DNA of 64,000 nt from Botryllus schlosseri (taxonomy: Eukaryota). A model generated the notes under the pieces. The model did no database searches and had not been told where the DNA came from. It saw only the letters and a program-made list of their open reading frames with translations. The position numbers and the translations under genes were made by a program. The stretch spans positions 870,001-934,000 of the forward strand of contig CM119373.1 of NCBI GenBank assembly GCA_051294905.1, written 5' to 3'. This document shows, piece by piece, positions 1,120-45,309 of the stretch (the stretch's first letter is position 1; every line of letters starts with the position of its first letter).

Positions 1120-2027
1120 TGTACCAGAGTAAACCCAGATAACATCTTCTTGTGTAGTCAAGCATGTCATGGCTCAAAAGCTAGATCTTGTTACTATCTA
1201 CAATACGGACTTGGATTATAGATAACTAACCTATGGATAGATACTGCAGTTAAATCGCCCTGAAGTAGCTAAGTAGGGTAACCTGTGTATTGTAGGTAAT
1301 TGCTGCGCTCTACTTAACTTGACGTCAACTCTGTAGTAAGTTCTTGAACCAAGAGATTGCTCAATACAAGATTTATTCGTCGTCGATGTTTGTTGTAGGT
1401 AGCGTAAAATGAGTCTGATTTAATACGAGACAGACTCGACAGTTTTGCAGTCTCTCGAACGAGAGAGTGAATACGTGCAATATTACGTCATTATTATTTA
1501 CTATAGCATGCACATTGCACAGTTTGTAATACGTGATATATTAACAATAAGCTCCATGCTAATTATTGGTTGTGTTTCAACTTGAAACCGTAAGTTGCCA
1601 AGCAACTGCAATACGAAACACCTGTCGTCACGCTTTCTTGCCTAGAGGAAATCGCTGCTCAGCAATCTGAACGCAACATACTTTCTAATCCCTTAGCTCA
1701 CGACCCGAGCGCTCAAATTTAGCAAAGTTGATCTTATTTGAAAGCTACTGTGGATCTGATTCTAAAAATATACATTGAAATCTAATCAGGGCAATGGAAC
1801 CCTGTTGAAATACACCTCAAAGTCCGGAAATCGGCATTGTTCTAAACAATCGCAGCGACGCAATACAATGACCATAACAATGGCCCTTGCGTGGTTGCGA
1901 TTCTTCAAAAAAATGCCGATTTCCGGACTTTGAGGTGTATTTCAAGGGGATTCCATTGCCCTGATTAGACTTTATTGTATATTTTCGGAATCAGACAATC
2001 ATCGATTTCAGCTCGGCGTCGAAAGAG
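1120..2027 (+). mobile_element. End fragment of a piggyBac of the same family as 19199-22997, inverted and interrupted
   Basis: 1120-1219 is the reverse complement of ~19310-19408. 1995-2027 (acaatcatcgatttcagctcggcgtcgaaagag) is the reverse complement of the terminus starting at 19199. Confidence 0.7.
1754..1995. repeat. Imperfect ~240-bp palindrome, member of a recurrent hairpin family
   Basis: Arms tctaatcagggcaatggaaccctgttgaaatacacctcaaagtccggaaatcggcat and atgccgatttccggactttgaggtgtatttcaaggggattccattgccctgattaga. Related copies at ~5030-5200, 5381-5800 plus 8609-8715, and 45652-46208. Confidence 0.85.
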
Positions 2028-2419
2028 TTATTAACTGATCTCAATAAAGTCTATCGCCATTCGTCACACGACATACCACTCTCCCAGAAAATCGGTAAAT
2101 CCAATCATAATCCTTCCAGAAAAAATCCAATCAAAATTCGACAAAATTTCACAAATCCGTTTTTTTCAAATCTCAATCCATGCTCATCTCTGCTCTACAG
2201 CATTGTATGGAACAGATGCTCAAAACCCCTGTTTATTGGTATAGCCCTGTTTAGTGGTAAGAAATACCTTTACAGTAGTATTGATGTGGGCTGTGTTGTG
2301 GGATGGAACATGGTTTAGCAGACCGCTGGTCCTTTAAATCCAATGTCCCTAGTTGACGCCCGGTATCTGTTATGAAGGAAATATACTGTGCTTGTACTAG
2401 GATTTTAGCATATCATGAC

Positions 2420-3641: not shown

Positions 3642-4704
3642 ATCATGACAACTATTAGAACTCCACTAGTGTTGCGCAAGCTTCGTAAGCATTATTACGC
3701 CAAACATAGCTAGAGTACTGCCTTTTTCCTGTTACGAGAACATTACTAACCCGTTCTCATTGGCTAAAGCATTACAATCGCATTCGTTGTTACGCATTTT
3801 TGGGTATAAAAACCCACGTTTTCTCTGTTGCGGCCCTTGAGATCTGAGATTCACCTCAGCGCCTGACGTACTTTTCTTTGCAATACATCCGACCGAGAGG
3901 ACTCGTGTGAGTTAAGAAATCACCGCCTAAGACAGCAAGCTACCAGCAAGTCGTTCAGCTAGCTACCTACTGCTCCAGCACGGCACAGCCATCTGTTACA
4001 TGGTCGCCTTCGAGTTCGGTAGCTCACAACGCAGCCTCCTGTTACATGGTGCCATTGATTTCGGTAACGCAGCTTACTGTTACAATGGGAGCATCTGCAA
4101 TACATTGGCATGGTGATGTCACCACGCTCCCACAGCTATGTCAAGGAAAAAGACACTCGCCGCATCATGAATGCTAGACGAATCGACAAAACTGACGCAT
4201 TCTGTAAGCGGACGAGATTGGAAGAATCGGTAAGAAACGAACGACTTGAAAAGGAAGAAGGCAAAACATAGTTGCAGGACTAGAAGGCCCAGAAGAATGT
4301 ATAAAAAAAAATCAACTACTTCTGTGTGTTTTACATATTTTAAAAATATGCCCTTTTTCTCAAAACTTCGCTTTTTGATACCCTAGATCATTCTTGAGGT
4401 CTAAAAAATAGTCAGCCATTTCACACGAAAAGCACATTGTGTGCAAATTTCAGACAGATTGCTCTCCTAGTATTAAAGTTCTAGGTGTTTGACTGATTTT
4501 CCATTTCGAGGGGTAACTTCAGCTTAGCCCCATAAGTCGTTAGTTACTGAAGAAAATTGAAGAATAGCGGCCTGGTATAAAAAATGATCATAGTAGTCGA
4601 CAAGCACCATCAATTCCTCAACACAAACCATCAAATTACGGATTCAATGAAAAAGAAACAATGCTCGTCGTCTATAGGGGATGTTTCTCAGTTTGTTGGA
4701 CCGA

Positions 4705-15369: not shown

Positions 15370-17435
15370 TATAGAGAGTGGGTCCGCCCATTTTTCAAGA
15401 CCGAATTCGATTTGGTGAACAGAATCTAGTTGAAGACCTGTTCCATGACTCGGAAATGTTTCACAAATACTTTCGCATGGACGACTCGACCTTTCGTGAG
15501 CTTCTTACTAAAGTACCCCCATACACAGGGCTGCCATACCGTCCTTATTTCTAAGATTTGCCCTTATTTTGAAGGGTCACGTCTTAGAAAACTCAACTGT
15601 CCCTATTTCTAAGAAATGTCCTTATTTTCGACTTGCGTCCTTATTTTGTCTTATTTTCAACCACTACAGAACTTCGATCGTTTTCCTCTAGTATCTGTGT
15701 TGCATAATATTCTCAAATTATGCTTTTGCGTAGAGATATTATGACATCATAAATGAAAGGAACTCTCGTGACGTGCACACCACACGATTTGTCTGCTAAG
15801 TGGTGAAATAGTTAGGGCAGTGAGTGGTAGTATTGCAGTTCGTCTGTACCAAGCTACCGCAGCGGACGTCATTTATGCAGTAAACAGCAGTACCATGTTC
15901 CTGCTGTGTTTGGTCTACAGAAGAATAAGCTCAAGCTGTGGGGAAGGCAGCATTTATTGCGTAGTGAAAAAAGGCGCAGTGCAGTCGACACATTGGTTAA
16001 AAAGTAGTAAAGCTATAATTCATAGATAAATTTATCAAAATTATATTGCACTTGCGCATCTATCGAAGCTTAAAGGGCGAGTGTTTCGCACATTGCAATA
16101 TCTGCAATTGTGACATTAACCTGGAGGCCATATGAAAGACTGCTATTTCAACTCACATTGATACCCGAAAACACAATAAGTGTGTCATAATGATTAATTT
16201 GAGCCAGTCGATGAATAATTTTTCCACAAGTCTATCAACACCAACGACCACAGACTACAAAGGCAGTTGCTGCTGAGGGTACCTGAGCATTCCATACTGT
16301 CAAATACCAGCAATCATTCATCACCAACGATTGCACATCGCAATTTGTTTAATGCAATATTCCCCGATTCAAACATCGCAAATAAGTTTTCTTCGGCCAG
16401 GACCAAGACTACAAGCATTGTTACTGGAGTTCTTGCTCCATTCACTCAAAAAATGATTTTGTCTAAACTTGGTGTAAGACCTTTTTCCATCACACCTTTT
16501 TCCATCTTGGGTGAAGAAGTTTGGTTTATCACCCTATGGGGAGGCCCAAGACCAACGTTGTTTTTTCTGGGGGGGGGGCGACAAAGTGCTGTTTCGACCC
16601 TGAGTATAGGTAAACGTAGACCTGAGATGTCGTGAGATCCATGAACCACTTTCTAATAACAAGGAGTTTCTGGAGTAGATTCTGGCGAAAAGTATGGAAT
16701 TGTGACATGCCGCGGCTCGTATAAATACAAAGTATGTATAAAAACGCCTTTTCGTGCTAATTTAATTCCTCGACTGTCCTTATTTTTGGGTCCATGTCGA
16801 TGGCAACCCTGCCCATACATAACAAAGCAAGATACGAACTGGCGGCCAGCAATTTGTCTAGCTTATCGACTTGCCATTACATTACGGTGAGCAAATGATC
16901 GTTCATTTATTATCGATTTCACATAATTGAATTTTGCAATAGGTTCTTGGCGACGGGTGATTCTCAGATCACTATTGGCTTGCGTTATCGTGTTAGGCAT
17001 TCGACAGTGAGCCTGATCATCAAAGAGACCTGCGAAGCACTGTGGAAGGTACTGTCACCCGAAGTATTGAAACCTCCAGCCACATCTGAAGAATGGCGAG
17101 AAATCTCTCGGGATTTCAATAAATTTTGGAGCTTTCGGAGCAATCGACGGTTAGCATATGGATATTGAAGCCCCCAGTTCGAGTGGTTCGGAGTACTTCA
17201 ATTATAAGGGAACCTACAGTATTGTGTTATTGGCAGTTTGCGATGCTCGTTATTGCTTTATATTAATCAATATTGGCGACACAGGCAGACACACTGATGG
17301 TGGAATATTTGCTGACAGTGAATGTGGCTGAAGATTCATTTCCAGCGGTTTGAATATGCCTGAATCTGGTTATTTACCAGGTACAGATTCGCAAGTCCCA
17401 TACTGTATTGTCGGAGACGCTGCCTTTCCTCTGTA
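15370..17435 (+). pseudogene. Harbinger (HARBI1-like) transposase pseudogene interrupted by a hAT
   Basis: FHKYFRMDDSTF; ITKQDTNWR...RLAITLR; intron 16887-16942 (GT-AG); FLATGDS; GAIDG; YFNYKGTYSIVLLAVCDA; VGDAAFPL. Confidence 0.9.
15526..16811 (+). mobile_element. Deleted hAT (Tip100-like) element with transposase remnant
   Basis: Ends cagggctgccat/atggcaaccctg; 8-bp TSD cccataca at 15518-15525 and 16812-16819; ccttattt repeats; peptide IFPDSNIANKFSSARTKTTSIV. Confidence 0.92.
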
Positions 17436-17457
17436 GACCATAGTATACCTCGCGACG

Positions 17458-17683: not shown

Positions 17684-18302
17684 TATGCTATCCATCTATA
17701 TTCTACAAGAAATGTAAAAATATTTGTATGATGCTTATGTAAAAATATTTGTATGATGCTGTACACGGTACACAGGTAAAAATGACACCCGCTTATTCCG
17801 ATCTTCTATATTTCAACTAAATAGGCATAGTAGACATCTAGATATAGGTCGTACGTGCCACTTTGGCCCCATAAAACTGCAGATAATAGCTCTTTCCAAA
17901 TTCACCTTGAGAAACGCAACTATAGGGCACGCTGCACAGGTGCACATACTACGATGCAGTAGTCATTTCCCGCGCGAGCCGAACCCGCATATTCCCAAAA
18001 TAAGAATATGATTGACAGGCGAAGCGGGTCCGGATGCGTTCAGATCCAAATTTTTGGGAACCGAAGTTTTGGAAATTATGTCGACCAGACCAGCCTCGGG
18101 ATTCTCGACTGCGTTCACATTGCTGGCATTCTGAGGATTATTCTGGGAAATTGTGTTCTGAAAATTAGGTATGAACGCACCCTTATGTTGTTCCGTGCAG
18201 CGACACCGCGTGTAAGGCTGCGACTTTCATTTTCTGCAGTCATTTGCTACTTGGATCTGTGCGTATTCTGCTAACTATTGGACACCGGAATATCTACTTT
18301 AG

Positions 18303-18962
18303 GATTGGAAATAACGATAAAAAAGGAAATAACGATAAAAAACAAGCTATAAAGAAAACTGTATGACTCGAAAGTAAAAAGGAAATGATGCTGTCATACT
18401 CTGCCCTCATGCAAAAGACCTACATTTGCTGCTTAGGTATACATGAAAGTCATGTCAAACAATTGCTGAAGACGATTATTCCTGGAGCTACCGACTGGGG
18501 AGTTTCTAGGTATAAGAGTGTATTGATAACCGATGATGACCTGAATCTAATTAAATATATATGCAATGCTGTATTGAAGTGGGCTGTCAAAAAGTTTCCG
18601 GTTGAATGGAGAGATTGGTGTAAAAACCAAGTATCTAAGAACCCTCTACCATTAGAATTCGAACCCAAAACCAGAGGAGGACTGATATGCCCAAATGAAA
18701 GATTTGTTACTAATGGAAGAATTTGAAATTTATTTTCAAAAGCAAAAAAACTCAGTTTATTGACATGAGAAGCATTCTCGGAAATGTCAATATTCCATTA
18801 CATCATTCACATTGTGACCAGACCCACGAGAAACTCCTCATTTCTAAATATGTGAGAACAAGAACTCATACATACTGCCGGGCTGCGACGAGAAATTATC
18901 ATGAACAATAGAAATATAAATCTAGAAGTTCCAAAGCACTGCGAGATCATATCCGAGTTTGA
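18303..18962 (+). pseudogene. Stand-alone gene resembling the P-transposase C-terminal region (RGGL motif)
   Basis: ITDDDLNLIKYICNAVLKWAV...LPLEFEPKTRGGLICPN, ending SSKALRDHIRV*. Homologous to 44188-45078. Confidence 0.7.
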
Positions 18963-19009
18963 ATATGGTCAACATTATCGAAACAGGTTCTGACATATCA
19001 TAAACACAT

Positions 19010-19195
19010 GCTACTTATTTCCTTTGCATATACTTGCGTTTCCATTTTATATTGCTTACTGATATTTTCTTTAAGTGTGCACCGTTTCTGCGCGGCAGTC
19101 TGAATCTTGCGCTGCCGATTATAGGCGCAAAGCCTGTCTAATGGGGTTATCTGCGGATGCTAATCGTTGTAATTCGTACACATATTCCATGACTT
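19010..19195 (-). pseudogene. C-terminal remnant of a P-like transposase, continuing at ~23001-23060 across the piggyBac
   Basis: Reverse strand reads QRLASADNP...AYNRQRKIQ...SNIKWKRK. Joined across the TTAA site it reads IEHVIALLSHGICVRIT. Confidence 0.55.
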
Positions 19196-19198
19196 CAA

Positions 19199-22100
19199 CT
19201 CTTTCGACGCCGAGCTGAAATCGACGATTGTGTTCAAAACGCCGCTATTTTACAAAAATTCACGATTTTCAATGAGTCACAACTTTTTTCCGCTGGTGCT
19301 ATGGTTTTGTATCCAAGTCCGTATTGTAGCCAGTAACAAGATCTAGCTTTAGAGCCATAACATGCTTGACTACACCAGAAGATGTTATCTGGGTTTACTC
19401 TGGTACGGACGAACCACGTTTTGCGACTTTTGCGAGCGGAGCTGCCGGAGTTTCGTACTTCGTCGATTGATTTTCGTTACTAATATGTATTCAAGTGCAG
19501 TGAAACTTTGTATTTATACTTATACTATCAAATATAAACAATTGAACATATTATGTTTCTATTAGTAAGTACTAAGCTCTTACTAGTCTGTATTATGCAA
19601 CATTATGTAGCAGTAAATTGCGATATTCCGTGAGTCTTGGCTACAAATCTGCCAATATCGAGCAATTTTGTATATTATGACGTTATAATACGCGGATAAG
19701 CTGAATGGGTCTAATAAGGCTAAGGTTAGGCTACTGAATTGATTAGGCTTATGAAATTGTACCGGTATACTATATTCAGTTGTATGTCAAACTTGACTCG
19801 GGGATCTTATACATATTATATTTCATATTATATGTCTGCGATATCATGCAACCAAGGTTTTGAACAGAATGTGACTATTTCAATTCTGTGAATCATGAGG
19901 CGCTCGAACAAATCCTACGGCATGGATGCGACTGTGATTGAACATATTTCTATGAACTATTCCAGGTTCCAGCTAAGACATGAAAGATGAATAGTACGAT
20001 CTTCTCGATTGGAATTGCCATCGCCACAACCAAGACAGTTTGACCACTGCAATGTGATTACGACAACGGATTTGTAGGAAATTTCACACTGCCAGAGTAA
20101 AGAGCATTTATTGGCGAACGGCGCAGATCAGCAAACACAGAACATACAACAGGTAAACAATAACAAACGAGCAAAATTACTCTAAAGAACTACTAGCGTG
20201 AAGGGGCACTGCACTATAAATACGGATGTAGTCTCAAATTTAAGATGAAATTGTGAAAAGTATTTTGTCGCAGTCATTTTCTTGAAGAAGCCACCATAGC
20301 AAAACGGCAGCTAGAAAAGAATTACAACCATCCAAATGCACACTTTGTGCCAGCAATGCAATGGGTTAAGGTTAGGCTCAGGTGCCACAAAAATATATTA
20401 ATGCACAGGCAGCCAGGGTGCAATGGGATAGTTGTCGTTTTCTTCTAGCTGGTTTCCCTGATAAATTAATAATTGATAATAAAGAATGATAAAATGACGA
20501 ACCCTTGAGTAAATTAATAACTAGAATAATAAAATTAAATTTAGATTGAAACTTTATTCCCAGCAGGCCTCTGTGTGGTAAGCTTCAAAAAAAGGTGCTG
20601 CATGTAACCCGACTTTGCATATGGAGCAGTGAAACTTTGATTTTTTGTTTTGACAGGTTTCTGTTGTTCTGCGTCATCGTGGATTTCGGCCCTACGTTTT
20701 TCAATCTGATAGCAGACTGCACAGTTACGCTGTCCATGCGCTCTCGTTCATACTGGGGGATTCAGCGCCAGAAAATGTCTTCCAACCAATCCATCCTTGA
20801 TGACAGCTGGTATCGCAGAGCCATGGTGGCTGACCTGGTCATCAACAAGATGGTGTATAATCATTCGCACGTACAGCAGCATTGGCATGTGCTTTCGCGA
20901 TGCTATATTATACAACTTCTGCGAGTTGACCAATGCCAAGCTCATCAGGTGGAAGAAAAGTTTCTTCCACCACCTGACAGTCTTGCGCTCGAAGCTGTAG
21001 TATGACAGAAGTTGATCAGACTTATCAATTCCTGCCATGTTTGAATTATGGGAGTCAATCACTTGCGGTTTTTGTTTGTTTTTTGCCCCAGTTTCGGATC
21101 TTACTCTGACAGTGGTCATCCCATTATCATGAATGGTGGATAACATTAATACTTCTTTCTTGTAATTCCACTTCGGAGCAAGGACCTCCCGGCACGCATA
21201 GACTTTGTCTCCCCCATCGTAGTGATTGGCTCCTTCATTTCGACCGGTAATCCCCTGTGTTCGGAACGACACGTTCCAACGGCATGCGTCTGCACTGCCA
21301 GCAAGCTTTCGAAAAGGGGCAAGGTGGTATAGTACCTGTCCATATACAGAATTTGCCCCTTCTCATTGTAGTCGTCCATCATAAATAGAACCAAATCCTT
21401 CGTTTTTCCCGGCCCACAGTCCCCAGCAAGTTTTCCCACCTCCACTTGAAAATTCAAACAATATCCTGACCTCGATTCGCACAATTCAAATAATTTGATC
21501 CCCCACTTTTTCGGCTTCATTGGATTATAGGCTTTGAATGTCACACGACCCTTGAAAGGACATGTCCCTTCGTCTAAACTCAAATCTCTTTCAGGGGAGT
21601 AGTTATCCTGGAAATTAGTGTTCAGGTGATCGATGATGGGCCGCAGCTTGAACACTGGATCATATCCTTCGGCACCAAACGGTACTGCTTTGTCATTGTC
21701 GTTACAATGGAGTGCCGCTAATATTAGCCGAAAGCGATTTCTTGACATTGCAGTCGACCAAAATTCACACCTAAAAATTGCTTCGGATTTACACCAACAG
21801 TCATCCAATTTTGTTTTTTTGTCCAATCCCATCGCAAATATCAGGCCAATGAATTTTTCCATTTCTTTAGTTGATACTTCTTTCCAATTGTTCCGATACT
21901 TCTTTCCAATTGTTCCAAAACTTCTTTCTTTTTGTTTTTGCTATCATTTGAGTTGCGTGCCTGTTGCTTTCATATTTTATTAAATTAAAAAAACTTTCAT
22001 TCAAAACCTGGTCAAATATGTTTCTTGCCGTGGCAGTTATATCTGGGTCCAGTTTAGGGCCTGGTATGCCTAGGAATTGGAATGGAGGATTTGGTGTTGT

Positions 22101-22997
22101 CGACGTGTCCTCATCCCACGTCGTACAGACTGGTGTGGGGCAATCGGGCTGGGGACTTGTTGAAGGCCCCACGGATGTGCTGTTGGTGCTCAATATTCGC
22201 CTCTTGGTAGGTGGGGAGTTTGGGGACTCATGCCGTACCAAGGCCGACAAATTCACAGGCCTTGTACGGCGCGACGTAAATACGCTCTGCAGTTCCGAGT
22301 ACGGCGCGACGTAAATACGCTCTGCAGTTCCGAGTCCTCAGAGCCAGAGCTAAGAATGTCGCTCTCCTCGCCGTAATCATATTCGTAAAACGAATCCATA
22401 CTAGCTATCAAATTATCCGACGCCTAAACAGATCGAATATGTATAATGGTAAATCCGTGTATCGCTAATGGCCGTGCTGCCAAGGATCCGAAAGATTTGA
22501 CTAAGCATTTTATTTCGGAATATTCAACATTTTATAAAGGAATATTCAACATAAGACATAACCTATCATATGGTAAAGCAGCAACGCCTCGCTGTCTATA
22601 TGCCGGCTATTCATAACGAATTTATTATATATATATTGCCAGAAAATTCAACAAAACTCATATGTTATGATATATTCAAATGTCATTTCAATTAACAATT
22701 TATTAATTTATATGTACATACTAGATAATGTACAACATACCGAATAAATCTATGAAATCCGTATTCCGCGAGCCAAGATACATCAATTTACGTCTAACTT
22801 ACTGGTTACGTTAATTTTGGTTATAGCCTAAATTATTAGGCTTATGCAGGATTACTTGGCCCATTCACCAACTTTTCTATTGATTACCGCATAATGCCAC
22901 ATCTTGGATGAACGCGAAAATGACTTGTCAGATTTTCGAGACAAAACTAAGCTTTCTCGATTTAGCGAACATATGGGGATACGCGGCGTCGAAAGAG
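19199..22997 (-). mobile_element. piggyBac element
   Basis: 14-bp TIR ctctttcgacgccg/cggcgtcgaaagag; TTAA at 22998-23001 and TCAA (mutated TSD) at 19195-19198. Confidence 0.93.
20554..22399 (-). pseudogene. piggyBac (PGBD4-like) transposase, frameshifted
   Basis: MSRNRFRLILAALH; LSLDEG..PFKGR; YNPMKPKKWGIK; YMDRYYT; NMAGIDKSDQ; RWWKKLFF; Cys-rich tail HCSICKVGLH. An internal 35-bp tandem duplication lies at ~22264-22333. Confidence 0.95.
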
Positions 22998-23286
22998 TTA
23001 ATAACGCAATAACATGTTCAATTCGGATTCGAATGAAGATAGCTGACAAATAGTGCAGCAACAGCAACATACAACTTGATGAAGATAGCAGACACGTAGT
23101 GCAGCAACAGCAACGTACGAATTCACGAAGATAGCTGGTACTTTGCACAGCAACGGCAACATACGACCGACGAACGTATCGGATTACGATTAACGTAAGT
23201 AAGGAACCAAAGTAAGTTAACTAAGATTTACAATAAACTTTGCGTCAACGTATATAACCAACAAATGGTGGTTCGCAGACGATTTA

Positions 23287-26200
23287 AGGCTGCTGCACAC
23301 TGGCTCTCGCGACACGACAAAACGAGAGAATCGCGCCTGTCTGTGACAAAACCATGCACACCGCGTCGCCAGACTACGCAACAAAGTGTCGGCGAGCGGG
23401 CTGCGAATCTCGCCGACAAAGTTGGATTTTTTCGCGAGTTGCGGGCTCAGTCGCCTTAAAAAATAAACACGCGCTTTTATTTCGACGGTGCTGTTGCAAT
23501 CTTTTCTAATCGTTCAACTTCCTAATTGAACATACCCGTGTAGCAGATGCGTGATTTATCTTGGGATTGACTCAGGGCGCAGTATGATATCCAACAAGCC
23601 CAGAAAAAGAATGATTCAACCTCAAGTTGATAACTTGAAGATGGATGAACGAAATCGAGATATATTTGATAATTAAATTACGATATGTTCACAATACAAG
23701 ATGAATAACAGAGAACATGACCGCTAGTCCGCCAATGCCACTGACAAGCTTGACATTGCGAAACTGCCGGTAGGCCAAGGAGAGTAGGCCTTTATATTAT
23801 AAAGATATCTGATTGATGGAGTATGTTCGGGGTATAATGGAGAATGTTAGGGGTATCAACGATTAGACACCTTCTTGTTTATATTCTTTGTATCTAGGGT
23901 ACTGTATATTGGGCATCTGCGTCTCGAGTTGAAATAATAAACTGACTTTTCGAATTTGAGAATATCTTAGTGGCATTATGATGTATTCCTTATCAAAATT
24001 CGGAGCATCAGCAAAATGCTCAGTACACATAGAAAACACATATGTGTAGGAAGTATCTTGATGTGTTCTTCAAAAGTAATAACCAAGAACCTATACTGTT
24101 ACGAAATCATTAAGCTGGCACAGAACAGATAGGCCTACGTTACGAGTGTACGACCCGATGTCCCAGTGTGCAGCAGAACGCAATTACCGCGATCATGAGC
24201 GCGACACGATCGGGGAATTGAGGCTGCTGCACATTGGCTTTGCGACACGACTAAAACAAGTAAAGGCCTCTGCACACTGAGCTCGCGACCCGATAAAACG
24301 ATAGAATCGCGCCTGTCTGCGACTGGACCATGCAGACCGGAGTCGCCGGCAACTCGCAACATGCCGTCTGCGACAGGGTTGCGCAACTCCGCGACAAAGT
24401 TGAAAATTTTCAACTTTGTCGCGAGTTGCGAGCGACTGGTCAGCAGTTACTGATCCTTAGTTCTATGTCACCGCAATAGTTTGTCCGGGTATTGCGTGTT
24501 TTGGCATCTTTAATTGTTTCCTCAATGAATTTAGACTGATTTGAGGCCATCTTTACTGCAAGAGCGCATTCTACTGTAAGCAGTACCGGTACTTGGTAAT
24601 TACCAAAGGCCAACCAGCTCCAGCAGTACCGATACCGCGAAACTCTCAGTCATTGTATGTCTACAGGTGGATTTATTATATATATACCTTGTCTGGTTCA
24701 TTTTAACCTGTACACTGTACAGTGTACAATGTACATTGGTTGGAAACTGGGTTAAGCAGGCACATATAATCGTGGTATGTCATGGGTTCACTGATGTATA
24801 TTTCAGATACCGGTACATCTCAGAACACGACGTCTGAAAATCTTTTTGATGACTAGGTAGCAGCAGTGTAACTCTTGATGTTAGATTTCGTCTATTCTCC
24901 TCTTTATGAGACTTCGGTACGAATTGTAGTGGCTAATATTATAAGTCAGAAATGGACTACGCATCATTATGGAGAATGAATCAACCAGGCCTACGGATCA
25001 GTTTCCATGCTTGATACCTGAGGGCGAATCGAAGATTGAAAAGGAAATAATCCCAGAGTTATATTTGAATATTGTTAAGACTCAATTCATTTACAATGAA
25101 ATTATAATGCATTTGAATGTTGTTCTCTATCATATCGAGAAATTAATGTATGAGTGCTTGACAGTTGATGCAGTCACTGAGGCAGTGGAATACAGAAAGG
25201 CTTGATGTTTGTAGCATAATAGGCTACAGCTAGAGCTCCAGAAATTTGGATCGGCAACCGGAAATAGCGCCTTTAACTGGGTCACCCAGATTATGCGTTA
25301 TCAGCATTGAAATATGATATTGGTTCGTTAATAGAAAAGTGTGTGCATATAAGACGTCATCTTATTCATTGACAAACCCATGTATACCCATCGAAATATT
25401 CATTTTGCGATCTATCGGGAGCTGTGCAATGTGTATCCATTGCGAGACTTCGGACAGAACGCGCAAGAGCTGTAGTTGCCGCTTGCGGGCACTGCCGGGA
25501 CCAGTGTGCATTGCTTCGCGACTTACGACTCGCAACTCGCGATGTTGCGTCGCGAGGTCAGTGTGCAGAGGCCTTAATTCCCCGATCGAGTCGCGTTCAC
25601 GATCGCGGTAGTTGCGTTTTGCTGCACACTGGGACACCGAGTCGTAACGTGGGCCTATCTGTTCTGTACCAGCTTAATGATTTCGTAACAGTATAGGTTA
25701 TTGGTTGGTACTATTGAAGAACACATCAAGATACTTCCTACACATATGTGTTTTCTATGTGTACTGACAGCATTTTGCCGATGCTCCGAATTTTGATAAG
25801 GGATGCACCATAATGCCACTAAGACTAAGATATTCTCAAATTCGAAAACTGAGTTTATTATTTCAACTCAAGACGCAGATGCACAATATACAGTACCTAA
25901 GATACAAAGAATATAAACAAGAAAGTGTCTAATCGTTAAAACGCCCTGGCATAGTCCATCAATCAGATATCTTTATAATATATAGGCCGACTCTACTTGG
26001 CCTACCGGTACTTTCGTAACGTCAAGCATGTCAGTGGCATTGGCGGGCTAGCGGTCATGTTCTCTGTTATTCATCTTGTATTGTGAACATATAGTAATTT
26101 ATTTATCAAATATATCTTAATTTCGTTCATCCATCTTCAAGTTATCAACTTGAGGTTGAATCTTTCTTTTTCTGGGCTTGTTGGATATCATACAGCGCCC

Positions 26201-26497
26201 TGAGTCAATCCCAAGATAAATTACGCATCTGATACACGAGAATGTTAAATTAGGAAGCTGAACGATTAGAAAAGATTGCAACAGCACCGCCGAAATAAGA
26301 CCGCGTGCTTATTTTCTACTGCTACTGAGCCCGCAACTCGCGACAAAGTTGGAATTTGGAATTTTTCAACTTTGTCGGCGAGTTGCGCAGCCCGCTTTAT
26401 TGCGTAGTCTGGCGACGCGGTGTATGTACATGGTTTTGTCACAGACAGGCGCGATTCTCTTGTTTTGTCGTGTCGCGAGAGCCAGTGTGCAGCAGGC
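23287..26497. mobile_element. Composite inverted structure built from Harbinger-type MITEs
   Basis: ~0.9-kb inverted arms at 23287-24219 and 25577-26497, with outer ends ctgctgcacactggctctcgcgacacgac and its complement. Confidence 0.88.
24264..25574. mobile_element. Inner Harbinger-type non-autonomous element
   Basis: TIR aggcctctgcacactga/tcagtgtgcagaggcct with TAA on both sides. Confidence 0.85.
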
Positions 26498-26999
26498 AGT
26501 CCGGTAGCGGTAAGAACAGCCTATCTGAAAAGGCTTGATTACAAATGATTACTAAAATCAGGATTAACCAATGAAATGAGCAAGCGCAAACACTCCCCCA
26601 TTTGACTGATCCCAGTCAACAGAATTATCAATGTAATACACGAACGATCACTCAAATCATCGCCTCATCTCATAGGCAAAGTGAGATTGTACAATGACCA
26701 ACATACAAGGAGCTGCTGAACCTCCGATCCAAAATACATTCTATATATCACCCTAAATAGTAGAAAGGCGTTCACCAGCTCTACAGGCGACGAGAATGGA
26801 TCATTTTTTGAATGGTAGGGTGGCGTTCGACATCTCTACACAACTCTTCAACACTCGCCACTAATTGTACACAACTCTTCAACACTCGCCAATAATTGTG
26901 TGTTATTGGTCGTGTCTATTCAAATTATCATATAGTTTCTGTTCGTTTGAATAATATATTTATCATGAATAATATATTTATCCTTAATTAAACATTACT

Positions 27000-32411: not shown

Positions 32412-34423
32412 TGAATTCAACGCCTCGTTCCAAAGTACCAAAAGAGATAAAAAAAACAACTGAAAAACCAGTGGCATAATATTAAGCAACGTACGAAAAG
32501 TAAATACACAAAAAGACGGCATTACCAAGCTCTAACTGGAGGCGGCAGACCGGCATCTCCAGAGGAGCCATTGGCAGAGAAGACCTATGGTACAGCAGTA
32601 ATTATAAATTTAATAGATTCTTATGAATTTTGGTTAACGATTTTGCAGGGATAATTCAGGCTCAAATTGAACCAAATGATAACCCCTTCGACGATGACGC
32701 CATTTTGGACCAGTCATACAATTCTAACCTATCGGTTCAGAGTACTGATAGTAAGTAGTCCGAAAATCACGCCAATTTCTATATGCGCGCAAGCCTATAT
32801 ATATCGTTTTCAGAATTCTCCCCGATTCAGACGTCAAAATATGCCTTACCAACACAAGGTAATCATCGCATTTCTATGATACGTTTCCAATTCTAACTAT
32901 TTCTTCATTTATTAGATACTAAAGTCGTCGCGACATCTTCGATTGCGGGTATGATATTCGTCAAATTGTTTATTTTCAAATCAAATCAAGAAACTGTAAA
33001 AAAACGCATGGACATTGAAGTAATTCTAGGTTGTTGAATTTAGCTAAAATGCTGTTCCACCAATAGCTGACGAAGGGCTCTGCCGGCAGTAGTGCTTCCA
33101 CCTGACACAAATCCGGCAATGTCATTCTCGTCTTGCTGATGCGGCACTGATATTGGCGTGTTCACTGTCACATTGTGTAGACATGCTGCCGCGACAATTA
33201 TTACCAGCGTATTATCGAGTCGCGTACGCATTGGTTTCGACAAGCAAAAGAAACGTTGTTTAAGTACACCGAACGCTCGTTCGATCTTTATCCGGTTTCC
33301 GATTAATGCGTGGTTATACCTCGCATCAGCCTGATTTGATGGGTTTATTATTGGTGTCATCAAGTTTGGGAGGCAAGGGTAACCACTGTCACCAAGTAAC
33401 AACCCATCAGTTGTTTCCATTGATGCACACAGGGTCGAAGAGTAAATTCTTGAATCGTGTGTTGATCCCGGCCACCGACACACGATGTGAGTGAATCTCA
33501 TATTAAAATCACAACCGAGCTGTACATTTATTGAGAAAAATACCTTTCTATTGCGGTATACCTCTGCATTATCCCCGCCTGGAGATAGTATCTTCACATG
33601 GGTCCCATCAACAAGTCCGATAACTCCTGGGAATCCATGTTCATTATAAAACTTTATTTTTTGGCCCATTAAGCTACTTGGATCCGTTTGAAACTTCATG
33701 AAATGTGCCTTCCTTTTTGCAATCGCCCGTGCCACATTATGGACGATGCGACATGTTGTTGCTTGATGCATATTCATCAAGTCCCCGTCTGTGGTTTGAA
33801 AATTTCCCATGGCGAAAAATCGCGAAGCCGTGAGCACTCGAATATGCATCGGGAACGGGTTGTTTCTGTTGCTTGAAAAAGCAATATCATTTTTTATCAT
33901 ATTTATCAGATCGATTACTTGAAGTTTTGAAAGCCGAAATCGAAATCTTCCAACAAATTTGTCACAATTCCATTTCCTAAATGGGTCGTCGTTGTCTTGC
34001 AATTGGGCATGAATTTCCAAATTCTGCAGCCGCTCCAGATATACAAGATAAGCATCCATGTGACTTATTCTAACTGAAAATTGCTGTGCAATATAGAACG
34101 ATGTGACATGTTAGCATAAAACTTGGGTTTCGGTCATTTGTTTACAACTGCTTCGACTATGATACAAAGTATGAATGCCATTTTAGCGAATTTATTTAGG
34201 GGGATTAATCGAAATTTGTGTTATACTCATCAAATGCATCTCATTTTAAAAATCAGATAAATCGAGGGGTGAGATGCTGCTCCAGATGGCATGTAAAGAG
34301 CATAGAGCCAGGATCGACTATTTACAGGAGAAAATTCGATGCGCGAAGCGAAAACTAGCGCTTGAGAAAGAAGTTCTGAAAAAACAGAGCCGTCTGTTAG
34401 AAATACAGATAGAGCAGAGGTAA
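32412..34423 (+). pseudogene. Spliced Harbinger Myb/SANT partner gene, 5' end lost
   Basis: Exons ~32412-32589, 32649-32750, 32814-32858, 32916-32948 and 34257-34423, separated by four phase-1 GT-AG introns that splice in frame. Peptides EFNA...RDKKQLKNQWHNIK...TGGG and IEPNDNPFDDDA, then a coiled-coil tail. A poly-A slip lies at ~32449. Confidence 0.82.
33040..34059 (-). CDS. Intact intronless Harbinger/HARBI1-like DDE transposase (339 aa)
   Basis: Uninterrupted ORF with FRLSK, GFPGVIGLVDGTH, YRNRK..SINVQ, WPGSTHDS, LLGDSGY, IERAFGVLKQRF and CLHN. Confidence 0.95.
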   Translation of the reverse strand: MDAYLVYLERLQNLEIHAQLQDNDDPFRKWNCDKFVGRFRFRLSKLQVIDLINMIKNDIAFSSNRNNPFPMHIRVLTASRFFAMGNFQTTDGDLMNMHQATTCRIVHNVARAIAKRKAHFMKFQTDPSSLMGQKIKFYNEHGFPGVIGLVDGTHVKILSPGGDNAEVYRNRKVFFSINVQLGCDFNMRFTHIVCRWPGSTHDSRIYSSTLCASMETTDGLLLGDSGYPCLPNLMTPIINPSNQADARYNHALIGNRIKIERAFGVLKQRFFCLSKPMRTRLDNTLVIIVAAACLHNVTVNTPISVPHQQDENDIAGFVSGGSTTAGRALRQLLVEQHFS

Positions 34424-40605: not shown

Positions 40606-40849
40606 TATAGACAATGTATATAGACTCGTAGTATAGCCAATGGCAGCACGTTTATTACCGAATTATTACGAAACGAAATGTAGAAAAAACAAAATTACGA
40701 AAGTGTAGAAAAAACAAAATTACGAAAGTGTAGGCAGACTTCGACAACTAGATAATTCTAAGGAGTCAAATTTCAATAAATTAGAGCGAATGCCAGTTTT
40801 CCAATTGTAATCTGAAAATTTTGCAGTTGTCCGAGTCTGACTTACGCGC

Positions 40850-41990
40850 TCATTTTGCACTGGGTATTGTCTGGCAATTTCTTGCACAATGTCCGAAAAG
40901 TAATGTTTTCTTTCTCTGGTCCGACGCCACATCCACTCATCGATATACGACGGTACGAAACCCCGTACCGAACCATTCATTCGCTTTAACTTCCGTTTGC
41001 AGTCTTGCCAAAGACTCTCAATATTGTTCGTGTGAACCCCTTGGAGGAGTCTTAAACAGATGTTTGTGGCAGACTGTTTTATGCGTGTAGCCGTTGCCCA
41101 TTCCTGATAAGGAAACAGAAATGTTTTAATAACATTCACCATTATCGCTGTATAAGATTTCATTTACCGGTTATGCACCGATACGCTGCCCATTCATCCG
41201 ACCAAATTTCGGTGCCTGGAGCAATATATTGTCGAATAAGGGGCAACAGGGTGTTTGCGTCCCGGCGATCGACGAATCGCATAAAGCATTGGCTACATAA
41301 CACATTATATACTTCAAGTTTTGCTGACGTTGGATTTTCATTTTCTGTACACAAACTTTGTCGTAAGGTCCACGCCTCCACAAATCCATTGCTGTGAACT
41401 CGGTCTTGCTTGGGCGTTGGCACCACGGCCCCTCTTAGCGATTACCGATTCGTCGATTGCCACCACATGTCCCGGGCCACCGATGACACCGGAACCGCGT
41501 AACAGCTCGGCTGAGCAGATCTGGAATATGCCACAACGCTTTGGAGTAAATACAATGCCTTACTTTACAATAGAATTTGGGTAATACCTCCCTGAAAAAC
41601 TGGCACCAGTCGATGCAGGTCCTGTTGCTTATTTTTAAGTTCGTCGATAATCTTGACCTGGTCGTGGTCCTTGCACCAGAAGTACAGCATGTACAAAAGT
41701 TTCGTCGGGGTGAAATTACTTTTGTAAAAAATGAGCCATGCCGGATGCTAATGAAATCTGAGCATTTCTGTGAATGATAAATGTCAAGAGAGCCATTAGT
41801 TTCTAGCTCAAACAAATAATTAAAAATTTCATACCGGGCAACGCCAAGCAACCTTATCGTTCACGTCCCTGAATTTTTCTGCGCAGGGCACTTGGCATTT
41901 CGGGCAATTCTTCTGTTATGCCAGCAGTCCATGTTCTCGGAAAAACAGAATGGCTGCGCGGTCGCTTGACAGCACGCCCATTTTCACCAG
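40850..41990 (-). pseudogene. Merlin (IS1016/ISXO2-like) transposase pseudogene
   Basis: SIRHGSFF; DWCQFFRE; IGGPGHVVAIDES; LLPLIRQYIAPGTEIWSDEWAAY; GVHTNNIESLW...SYIDEWMWR. Confidence 0.92.
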
Positions 41991-42369
41991 TTCGGGTAAA
42001 CCTACACCAACTAATGTCGACATGCTGACTGGTAGATTTGCGCTATGAAATGAAACTATATATTATTAGGCGATGCTTTAACTTCACAAATTTTAATGCG
42101 GCATAAAATTATTCATGCATAGAAATTAACCTAATCCTATGCCTATATATGCCATTCACGAGCTTATATATTAACCGATTTCAGTTTTAATTAAATTAAA
42201 TTATTAGTTTATATTAGGCTTACCATATTTTGGAAATCTAAAAAGAGGACACTTTTTCAGAAATTTGAGACTTGCAAAACCGGAGAAGAATTCTCAAAAA
42301 CCGGTGAATTTTTCCCACTTAGTGATCGGTTGATCAAAAAAAAATTAAAAAAAAGGTCCCGGCCGGGGG

Positions 42370-42418: not shown

Positions 42419-43254
42419 GTCTCCTCATGTGTCCAAATTCTCCATTTTCCAAAGTCAGATTCAACTACACTCAATCAATCAATCAACAAACAATCAATCA
42501 GCTGATTCAACAGCAATCTCGAAACATTCCAGTGACTGCGATAGTAAATAGACGACATCGAAGACCAAGCGCGGGAGATTCTCTGCCAACCGTGAATTAC
42601 TCCGCCAAGCGGTCGAGGCAACCACTTGGTAGAGTAATTTTGCTGAGTCGTGAAATCGATGCCCATATATGGTCACTCTGCCAACGAAACCTGCACATGG
42701 AAACGGCTTAAATGTTTTGACCGACAGCGCTCCTAGTGACGCGGTATCGAACACGCGTAACAAGCAACCTCTCCAGCTGTATTATTACGTCGCCGTAGGC
42801 TCTTGTATCAAACACCCGTACCAAGCAACCTCTCCGGCTGTATTAGTACGTCGCCGTAGGCTCTCGTATAGGTTGTGATGTAGGTAGATTCGCCTCAAAT
42901 GCCTGTAGTTTTGCAAGTTTAGAATTTATACTGTGTTATTATGGATGTATTTATCTGATGATATTTCTAAGTCATACGAGAGCTGACGTCCCCATTCAAG
43001 TCGATATGCAAGCAACTATTACTAAATTAATGCTATTCCATCCTCAAGATCCTCTATACTATCTTCTTTACTTTTCATTCAGTGTGCATTGCATGCCTCC
43101 TCTTTACATCGTCTAGGTCAAGGTGGGTGTCTTATTCCATAGACTACTCCAAGTCGCTTCGACACCTTCCTATCTTTTCATTGTATCGCATTTTAGGTGA
43201 CGTCATGGATTGAAAAAAATGGTTTCTTTGCAATGAACTCTATTTGACTTTCAG

Positions 43255-43724
43255 GTACAGCCATGCGCGATACCGAACCCGCTCTGTCCAAATTCATCCT
43301 TCATATGAATAAGTGGTATGACGCGATGAAAAGGGGATGAAAATTCAAACCTGAGCGACGACCATTCTATTCCCCTCATGAAGACAGTTTACACTGGCTA
43401 GAGGATGATTTTATTACCTACCTGCATGAATGGCGTGCACGGGCACAATCCCTAGTTCTCCCGGGCGACGTAAATCGATCGCTGATGCTCCTTAGCCGCC
43501 CTACCTAGGAAGGGTTGAAGTGGCTACCAAGTCGATGGTAGCAATTATTCAGGAATGCCTATCAACGGCGTATCAATTACGATCCATTGGAGTCCAATTT
43601 TGGTCGACAGCGATGCTCACAGACTGACTTGCCTTCAGTAGCACTCTTCAGCGCAAACTCGCGCTCTGCTGAGTTGCATCACTTTGCCCATATTTCTGGC
43701 GCTAATATACAGCCAACCCCCTAG
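43255..43724 (+). pseudogene. 3' part of a P-like (THAP9-related) transposase
   Basis: KFILHMNKWYDAM; LHWLEDDFITYLHEW; MLLSRPT*EGL; DPLESNFGRQR (43581-43613); stop at 43722-43724. Confidence 0.85.
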
Positions 43725-44187
43725 TAAACTTTCTCCGCATATCTTTGTGATGAGACTCTTGGAGATGAAGGTAGAATATACATTTGAATAATGTATTCAT
43801 ATTGAATTAACCCCGAATATTTTCGGCAGACACTAATCTTTGGTAATTTGTCAGCAACTTCAAGACAATTGAAAATAGGTCATTAAAATGGTATATGAAC
43901 TATCATCGGCCACGTTCACCAACCTAAGCTACGCCAATAAAAGCAATTCGTGGTATCATCTAAAATATAGGCTCATGGAGCTAAATGACTGTCTTCGATT
44001 CGATTTTTTGAAATTTCATGCCAGTGATTGATATGCAATATGTTCTTTTCAATTCTAAACTAGTTGCTGTCAATTACCCATAAGTGCTACCATAAAATAG
44101 CACGGTATATTTAATTAAGATTATAAAATTGAATTACATTTTTATTGTGAGAATAAATATCACCAGACCAACATAAAATTTAAATCC

Positions 44188-45078
44188 TTAGGACTTGTGT
44201 AAATCCTTTAATGATTTACGGAGCGAAGTAGATTTGCGGCTTTTGGACTTAGCTAACTTGCTGTATTCAAGCACCCGCTTCCAATTATAATCTAATTCTA
44301 ACTCCGCGCACGGATTAAGCGGGGGATTAGTAATTGCGTGATACCGTTCCAACTTTCACTCTTCTCATGAAGTTTATTGATTATTCGCTGCTCGTTGACC
44401 GATTCAGAGGACATTGATCTTCGAAGTAAGTATTCTCCCTCCACCATCAGCAGGGAGAATGAATTCTTTGGTGCAAGCAAATATCCCCTGTCGATTCTTG
44501 AGAATTCAAAAGGTAAGGTACTGTCAGAGGATATTTGCGATCGAATCCAATTTGCGTCTTCACCCGAACTATTCCTCAGTCTCCAGACTTCCCACTTTAG
44601 TAATGCGCCTGACATATATTTGAGAACCCTTTTGTCATCATCAGTAAGAACGATACTTTCAATGACGGATTTTGAAGAATTCAAATTTTTTGAATTCAAC
44701 GGTAGCTGAATTATTTTGGGGACTAGTCGTTATGATGCGCTTCACAGTCATATCAGATATTTCAGAACGACTTTCACAATATCCTTTGCCGAGCATTTCC
44801 GAGTATTTCTCGAACATTGTAGACTTTGTTCCGAAAATTTGAAACAAGTCTCCCAGTATTTTGTCATGAATGCCATCTGCCATTGATACGCCCGAATCGA
44901 CCAAGGCGATTGCCGGATTTTTTTCTATTTCTGACAGTTGAGTGTCTCCAAAGCACACTTCAATTGTGAGGGCAGGATGGAAGCTGCTTGTAGAGGCCTC
45001 CGGGACGCTGCTTGTAGAGGCCTCCGAAACCTCCATAACGGCTGGGTCTTGTGAAGTGACATCGTCTTCATCCACCTG
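44188..45078 (-). pseudogene. Stand-alone gene resembling the P-transposase C-terminal region, convergent with the transposase
   Basis: VLTDDDKRVLKYMSGALLKW...LPFEFSRIDRGYLLAP, ending KSTSLRKSLKDLHKS*. Acidic N-terminal part. Confidence 0.72.
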
Positions 45079-45309
45079 GAATGATAGAAATTCACGTCAA
45101 GATATGCTGCTACAACATGACAGCAACTACGCTTGTAATGTGTGCTGTACCTGTGTAGTGGGAGTATGCGCATTACGCATGGGCTGTATAATAGACGTTC
45201 TACTAAGACTAAGCAATATCAGATGTTTTCCGAGAGCAAGACACTCACGTCAACGAATATTCTTAGCAATTTCTCTTCACTGAATTCCATATTAATGTGT
45301 ACTCTACAC

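Follow-up and report, generated by a model that had tools for sequence, protein, structure and literature searches.

The window analysed here, a stretch of 64,000 nucleotides of Botryllus schlosseri DNA, contains a plus-strand gene at 18303-18962 for which an initial annotation had proposed a partner: the minus-strand tail of a P-type transposase, facing it tail to tail and continuing across the insertion site of a piggyBac element. Is this locus a second convergent gene pair, independent of the one further along the window, or something else? The stretch 18182-19082 is the decayed left end of a young P-superfamily family, here called family A, whose transposase gene is without the C-terminal domain (CTD). 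The flagged copy is dead debris, and its family is a real variant of P elements. The features of the locus and of the other gene pair are listed in Table 1.

Table 1 Features of the family A fragment, its neighbours and the family B gene pair in the window
Feature	Coordinates	Strand	Remarks
Subterminal left end of P-like family A	18182..18270	+	Element positions 46-134; 92% identity to intact copies
Exon 2 (decayed) of family A stand-alone CTD gene	18273..18968	+	Lacks exon 1 and start codon; frameshifted
Family A non-coding spacer downstream of the CTD gene	18969..19082	+	Alignment to intact copy
Unrelated LTR-like repeat, first piece	19084..19198		TG...CA ends in other copies; holds 'QR..DNP..YN'
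Decayed piggyBac element	19199..22997	-	PF13843 E 6e-59; 14-bp perfect terminal repeats; flanks TCAA / TTAA
LTR-like repeat, second piece	22998..23286		Three 46-nt units; holds 'IEHVIALL'
LTR-like repeat, third piece	26505..26593		Behind fold-back insertion 23287-26504; purine tract after it, minus strand
Decayed last exon of family B P transposase	43200..43725	+	Ends without CTD; 132 bits to P last-exon profile; intact relatives L043-L045
CTD gene of family B	44188..45096	-	Convergent to its transposase

By alignment, 18182-19082 corresponds to positions 46-134 and 435-1270 of a 6.3-kb family A element. Both termini are gone from the window copy, the outer 45 bp of the terminal inverted repeat being absent at 18182..18270, and alignment to an intact copy gave no further match in the window to the rest of the element, i.e. 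the THAP-transposase and the right end. The CTD gene is dead: a deletion of ~300 bp took exon 1 with the start codon, and several small deletions break the frame. The alignment by eye of 18303-18962 with 44188-45078, described as strongly diverged, was borne out by a search within the window, in which the frame 18367-18723 (+) matched 44660-44457 (minus strand) at 37% over 68 aa (E 3e-9); the sequences 18273-18968 and 44188-45078 are homologous, each predicted to encode the CTD of a P transposase as a stand-alone spliced gene. When the 495-Mb, 219-contig genome was searched at the DNA level with 18250-19196, the query split in two parts: the part up to 19082 occurs alone in 8 copies at 88% and 3 at 73-80%, and the part from 19071/19084 onward occurs alone in 28 of 40 matches.

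That second part accounts for most of the supposed facing tail. No P-type tail is present at 19010-19195; 19010-19082 is the non-coding spacer and 19084-19198 the beginning of an LTR-like repeat, uninterrupted copies of which run elsewhere from 19084-19198 through 22998-23286 to 26505-26593 without a break. Copies of the repeat start with TG, finish with CA, often occur as direct pairs 1.6-1.7 kb apart and adjoin a purine tract; it is on these ends, the pairing and the purine tract that the term "LTR-like" rests, and by sequence comparison the pieces within 19084-26593 are such a repeat, unrelated to P. The continuity claimed across the piggyBac site was thus rightly seen for the DNA, as 19198 and 22998 belong together, but what continues is this repeat and not P sequence. 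The motifs QR..DNP and YN, read as one tail, lie in different frames, and IEHVIALL is out of frame with SHG. With the piggyBac element excised, as the initial annotation had suggested, a profile built from 12 P last exons of the same genome scored -0.9 to -1.9 bits, the level of shuffled sequence (n=200, median -1.5, 95th percentile 1.1, maximum 7.8 bits); the positive control 43200-43760 scored 132 bits. Convergent pairs are common in the genome and the DNA is indeed continuous across the insertion site, as a second convergent pair at 18303-23060 would have it, but the shuffle-level score, the motifs in different frames and the assignment of the stretch to the repeat speak against it, as do the intact family A copies, which have at that place the spacer followed by a THAP exon on the same strand. 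We consider this reading almost certainly wrong. The window locus is not convergent because the supposed facing tail is another repeat and family A itself is tandem.

The true convergent pair of the window is that of family B, at 43200-43725 (+) and 44188-45096 (-). Pairing of a P-like transposase with a second gene is a family trait in this genome: 16 of 22 loci are convergent, 2 are tandem (families A and A2) and 4 have no transposase nearby, and among 17 loci chosen by their transposase 11 have a convergent CTD-like frame, 4 have none, 1 has only the family A relic described below and 1 is L144, all genome counts of loci being lower bounds. L144 was considered as a third layout, with the CTD downstream, and was rejected as two adjacent insertions. 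Hence the earlier argument against a one-off inversion holds for the family (16/22 and 11/17 loci), although 18303-23060 is no instance of it; the regular pairing with a P-like transposase holds as well, but the presumed accessory protein appears to be the transposase's own detached CTD, a point that was missed. Trees of CTD and transposase from nine families are identical in topology (Mantel rho 0.84, p 0.0008), with weak deep nodes, and dN/dS of the CTD is 0.13, 0.20 and 0.24 in three family pairs. In one convergent family, 15 raw RNA reads with 8 different starts, as well as contigs from 3 runs, show the CTD intron removed, and splicing of five transposase introns is seen on the strand opposite to the CTD intron, which implies two mRNAs.

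Intact copies of family A measure 6.05-6.29 kb and show, in order, an inverted repeat, the CTD gene, a THAP/RNase H transposase gene on the same strand, the dead start of a CTD gene on the other strand, and an inverted repeat. The four long copies are 97.7-98.6% alike, and exact 7-bp target duplications flank 10/10 family A/A2 copies with both ends. The CTD gene has two exons, encodes 281-282 aa and reads inward from the left end; the transposase gene has 11 exons. Copy L035 carries an 837-codon, 11-exon frame with the D, D and E residues, the catalytic motifs LDEM, DGL and QDTLE in frame and a single early stop; this frame comes from L035 alone, each of the other three long copies being without one exon anchor. 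It ends 50 residues past the N of NQDTLE. Profile matches of this transposase to the P superfamily comprise PF21789 (E 7.5e-7) and, below the cut-off, PF05485 (E 0.001), PF21787/8/9 lie above the cut-off in a related family, and the match to 6P5A_A has an E of 5e-4. A THAP domain, a P-type RNase H with GTP-binding insertion, D-D-E, inverted repeats and the 7-bp duplication are the features by which we place the family in the P superfamily. The fusion of the CTD to the catalytic core that characterizes the canonical P element and THAP9 is not found here, where the CTD has its own spliced gene. For the family A CTD intron, splicing is supported by 2 raw reads and 2 contigs, to which subfamily A2 adds 10 reads, at low RNA depth and from runs (X1-X3) whose RNA origin is a guess.

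The identity of the small gene was approached through structure and sequence. An AlphaFold2 model of the protein (11-row alignment, mean pLDDT 76) retrieves chain B of the fly P transposase structure 6P5A at rank 1 both in Foldseek (probability 1.00, E 0.083, TM 0.64 on the target) and in VIA (Z 10.2, next 7.2; rmsd 2.7 A, 112/118 residues), where model 118-248 superposes on chain 617-734 and no other of 48,161 chains reaches a Z of 8; the fold is helical, and VIA warns that a Z under about 13 may mean a common arrangement. By sequence, a 13-row profile also ranks 6P5A_B first (E 0.014), with the YIAG, GGLI-P and KIR motifs colinear. Searches of the PDB by single sequences or a narrower profile missed 6P5A_B and found nothing, and Pfam gave nothing significant on the CTD proteins, with one sub-threshold match to PF12596 (E 0.053). 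The first 112 residues had no clear match in the VIA comparison; the protein has about 110 extra N-terminal residues, which include a conserved acidic mini-exon. On the other side, the transposase stops 28-64 residues past the N of the N/S-QD-x-LE motif in 9/9 families, equivalent to fly residues 554-590 in the alignment to 6P5A_A, and the accessible text of PMC10824691 places the CTD of the fly P transposase at 566-751. Because three methods, each with a modest score, rank 6P5A_B first and the small gene complements the shortened transposase exactly, we identify the stand-alone gene, at the level of models and profiles, as encoding the P transposase CTD.

Searched more widely, the 13-row CTD profile collects 834 clusters (50% identity) at E up to 0.001, the best 150 of which are 91-469 aa long, and 1 of these 150 matches the P last-exon profile marginally. 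No fused CTD-transposase was found in this genome or among the best 150 of the 834 clusters. Since the proteins come without genomic context, and some may be single exons, the 834 clusters are a hint at a wide split branch rather than proof of one; in such a branch many unnamed proteins would be tail subunits. A word search for fused long relatives of 497-2000 aa found 0 among 7,985 candidates, which is weak evidence; in metagenome contigs, 0 of 435 pattern matches were confirmed, and the ESM Atlas gave no usable match, one eukaryotic cluster at 0.87 serving as a lead only.

The tandem order of family A appears to be derived. The two ends of family A match at 78% over about 470 bp, a stretch that takes in a pseudo exon 1; in convergent families the ends are alike over 29-34 bp. 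The right end contains a dead exon 1 (ATG lost), followed by the intron and the first part of exon 2; this relic reads toward the transposase and takes the position of the CTD gene in the convergent layout. From the likeness of the ends and the dead gene start at the convergent position we infer that one end of the element, with the CTD gene on it, was duplicated at the opposite end, and that the original CTD copy then decayed. The convergent layout, which most other families of the genome retain, would be the older one, with the dead gene start at the right end as its trace. A search inside family A for a relic of an earlier left end found none; the tree nodes that place family A have 36-65% support, with a root that rests on the two most distant families. 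Galileo, another P-superfamily element, is described in the accessible text of PMC3573991 as lengthening its inverted repeats by copying one end onto the other. One contig shows the relic spliced in antisense, more antisense joints lie across the transposase, and such splicing is a possible brake. A tandem family that carries a fossil of an older layout shows how the gene order of an element flips.

In family F, the two genes reside on separate elements. The CTD-only element is 3.4-4.7 kb long (most copies 3.4-3.6 kb) with inverted repeats of about 250 bp, and more than 30 near-full family F CTD genes are among the matches listed. Both ends were found in 9/10 copies fetched; a transposase exon is present in 0/9 of the elements so delimited and a 7-bp duplication in 7/9. 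The transposase-only element, 4.9 kb and with no CTD gene, lies at C15 and, 92% alike, at C6. At C15 the two types adjoin each other among three copies of one 7-bp target, and therefore represent two insertions. Their termini are related but distinct, each type having its own end sequence at both termini, so that neither can be derived by simple internal deletion. Of the 82 distinct changes counted among CTD-only copies, 36 are synonymous, where 22.2 would be expected under the same base and CpG spectrum (permutation test, p 0.0004; 18/18 copies for exon 1 and 15/18 for exon 2, the 3/18 copies with indels being left out of the exon-2 count). The Nei-Gojobori ratios of 0.32-0.37 come from a method that ignores transition bias and are superseded by this test. 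The CTD-only copies show signs of purifying selection at the sequence level. Family G, the sister of F, is complete and convergent, and family F may have arisen by the same end-copying as in family A, acting in both directions.

What would a detached CTD do? We think it probable, from sequence, models and the analogy with the fly, that the CTD is supplied in trans as an essential second transposase subunit. According to the accessible parts of PMC7776569 and PMC4938643, the CTD in the fly structure is tethered by a disordered linker, lies between RNase H and another subunit's GTP-binding domain, and touches both transposon DNA and target DNA. The 66-kDa form, which lacks the C-terminal third, is a repressor that binds P DNA; it is unable to transpose (PMC7776569, same limitation). 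A cut within such a disordered linker fits a subunit supplied in trans. The catalytic protein would bind the element ends via THAP, and the CTD protein would enter the complex and there contact donor and target DNA as the fused CTD does in the fly. Alone, the catalytic protein would be inactive or a repressor, like the fly 66-kDa protein, and the supply of CTD would switch transposition on, the role played in flies by intron-3 splicing. Complex predictions of catalytic core and CTD in the family of L134, with alignments not used, gave 0.00, 0.62 and 0.00, values that weigh neither for nor against such a complex.

An alternative is that the transposase works without the CTD, the CTD gene being a regulator or helper, such as a repressor, a targeting factor or an anti-silencing factor, and no catalytic subunit. 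The N-terminal extension with its acidic mini-exon is in keeping with this, as is the ability of the gene to shift to another place or another element, and convergent transcription could itself regulate. We nevertheless find it unlikely, given the shared tree topology across nine families and, in what is accessible of PMC7776569, the contacts of the fly CTD with transposon and target DNA and the failure of the 66-kDa form to transpose. For family A in particular, where both genes lie on the same strand ~500 bp apart and one contig from a run guessed to be RNA spans the two, the products might be joined into a single spliced transposase that is circularly permuted, the CTD coming first. However, the CTD stop codon and the THAP start codon are both retained in subfamilies A and A2, no joint between the two genes is listed and another contig stops ~200 nt past the CTD stop (both at low depth), and we regard a joined product as highly improbable.

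The separate genes of family F could also be explained by ordinary defective derivatives, moved by a complete convergent element missing from the assembly, with the synonymous excess inherited from earlier autonomous masters. The complete and convergent sister family G would suit this, and the survey comprised one assembly, with searches that give lower bounds, just 2 long transposase-only copies (92% alike, frames partly checked) and 3/18 indel-bearing CTD copies outside the exon-2 count. On the other hand, the end sequences at both termini are specific to each type, so that a simple internal deletion accounts for neither, the sole point of contact between the types shows three copies of the 7-bp target, i.e. 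two insertions, and none of the other listed F CTD genes has an F transposase exon next to it. We take derivatives of this kind to be a plausible explanation, though one that we do not favour. A trans-supplied CTD would extend to a broader and more tentative proposal, to which we give slightly less than even weight: a widespread branch of P elements with a two-subunit transposase whose genes are free modules, arranged face to face, in tandem, or as two co-dependent transposons, one a cutter and one a DNA-capturing tail. In such a branch, the tail gene would be an on-switch replacing the germline splicing control of flies, and a transposase-less element would be kept functional by selection.

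In the openly accessible literature, no description of a split P transposase was found, including tandem or two-element forms. The closest relatives are the Drosophila melanogaster P element with its 87-kDa transposase (6P5A/6PE2) and vertebrate THAP9, which have in common with the families described here THAP, HTH and RNase H with GTP-binding insertion (PF05485, PF21787-9), as well as D-D-E, the predicted CTD fold and inverted repeats. They differ in that the CTD is here on a separate gene with an extra helical N-part, and the duplication is 7-bp here and 8-bp in Drosophila P. The fly 66-kDa repressor, with intron 3 retained, is without the C-terminal third, as is the catalytic gene here. The end of that protein we take to lie close to the end of the catalytic gene here (fly residue 576 for family A). 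Here the transposase gene yields nothing but this CTD-less form, and the part it lacks is encoded by a second gene. The role of the CTD and the repression by the CTD-less form are known mainly from one structure and fly genetics, and the natural split makes them directly testable by adding or withholding one protein; if true, it would amount to a two-component, switchable transposase. Family A has two near-identical ends, while the ends of fly P differ in binding-site spacing according to the accessible part of PMC7776569. Duplications of 7 bp are already known in the P superfamily, from Galileo and 1360 (accessible text of PMC3698922), and no second gene of either element appears in the accessible parts of PMC3573991 and PMC3698922. 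The long inverted repeats of Galileo grew by end-copying (PMC3573991, in part), whereas in family A the copied end would have carried a whole gene. Family F looks like the bipartite PIF/Harbinger element Harbinger-1M_cIno of Caenorhabditis inopinata, for which the accessible text of PMC13668399 reports that partner-only elements expand, catalytic-only ones are rare and supply in trans is inferred. That element belongs to another superfamily, and its MADF protein has always been separate (PMC13668399, likewise in part), in contrast to the CTD, a piece of the fly transposase. If the present reading is true, family F would be a P-superfamily case of cooperating transposons, which we found in print for PIF/Harbinger only.

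The two element types of one P-like family, one carrying only the C-terminal domain (CTD) gene and the other only the transposase, are listed in the table. Among the genome matches listed, the CTD-only element is represented by more than 30 near-full copies, at which 7-bp duplications are found and among which there is an excess of synonymous changes. A decayed CTD fragment akin to another P-like family, that of locus L134, was seen at loci L159-L180, with more than 100 similar copies, and these fragments are probably a single non-autonomous family.

In family A, the right end of copy L032 (L032:5786-6347) holds a defunct duplicate of the beginning of the CTD gene in which antisense splicing persists, and additional antisense joints occur across the transposase region. 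The transposase of this family also has a 62-nt GC-AG intron (positions 4556-4617 of the L035 element), the splicing of which was seen in one contig.

The window holds further transposase-like frames, one of them an open frame of 356 aa and the others decayed, which resemble Harbinger/HARBI1 or Merlin/ISXO2-type transposases.

P-like elements of the two-element family, outside the window, and features of the window
Feature	Position	Strand	Remarks
CTD-only P-like element	L181:6923-9991; L182 (B. schlosseri C15:23813920-23817330)		further copies L189-L220
Transposase-only element	L181:1998-6915		adjoins CTD-only element; second copy L209
Fragments of same piggyBac end	window 1121-1216 and 1995-2029		inverted orientation
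Decayed frame	window ~16900-17440	+	presumably Harbinger/HARBI1-like
Fold-back element	window 23287-26504		arms >1 kb; inside LTR-like repeat
Open frame, 356 aa	window 33040-34110	-	presumably Harbinger/HARBI1-like
Decayed frames	window ~40720-42050	-	presumably Merlin/ISXO2-like
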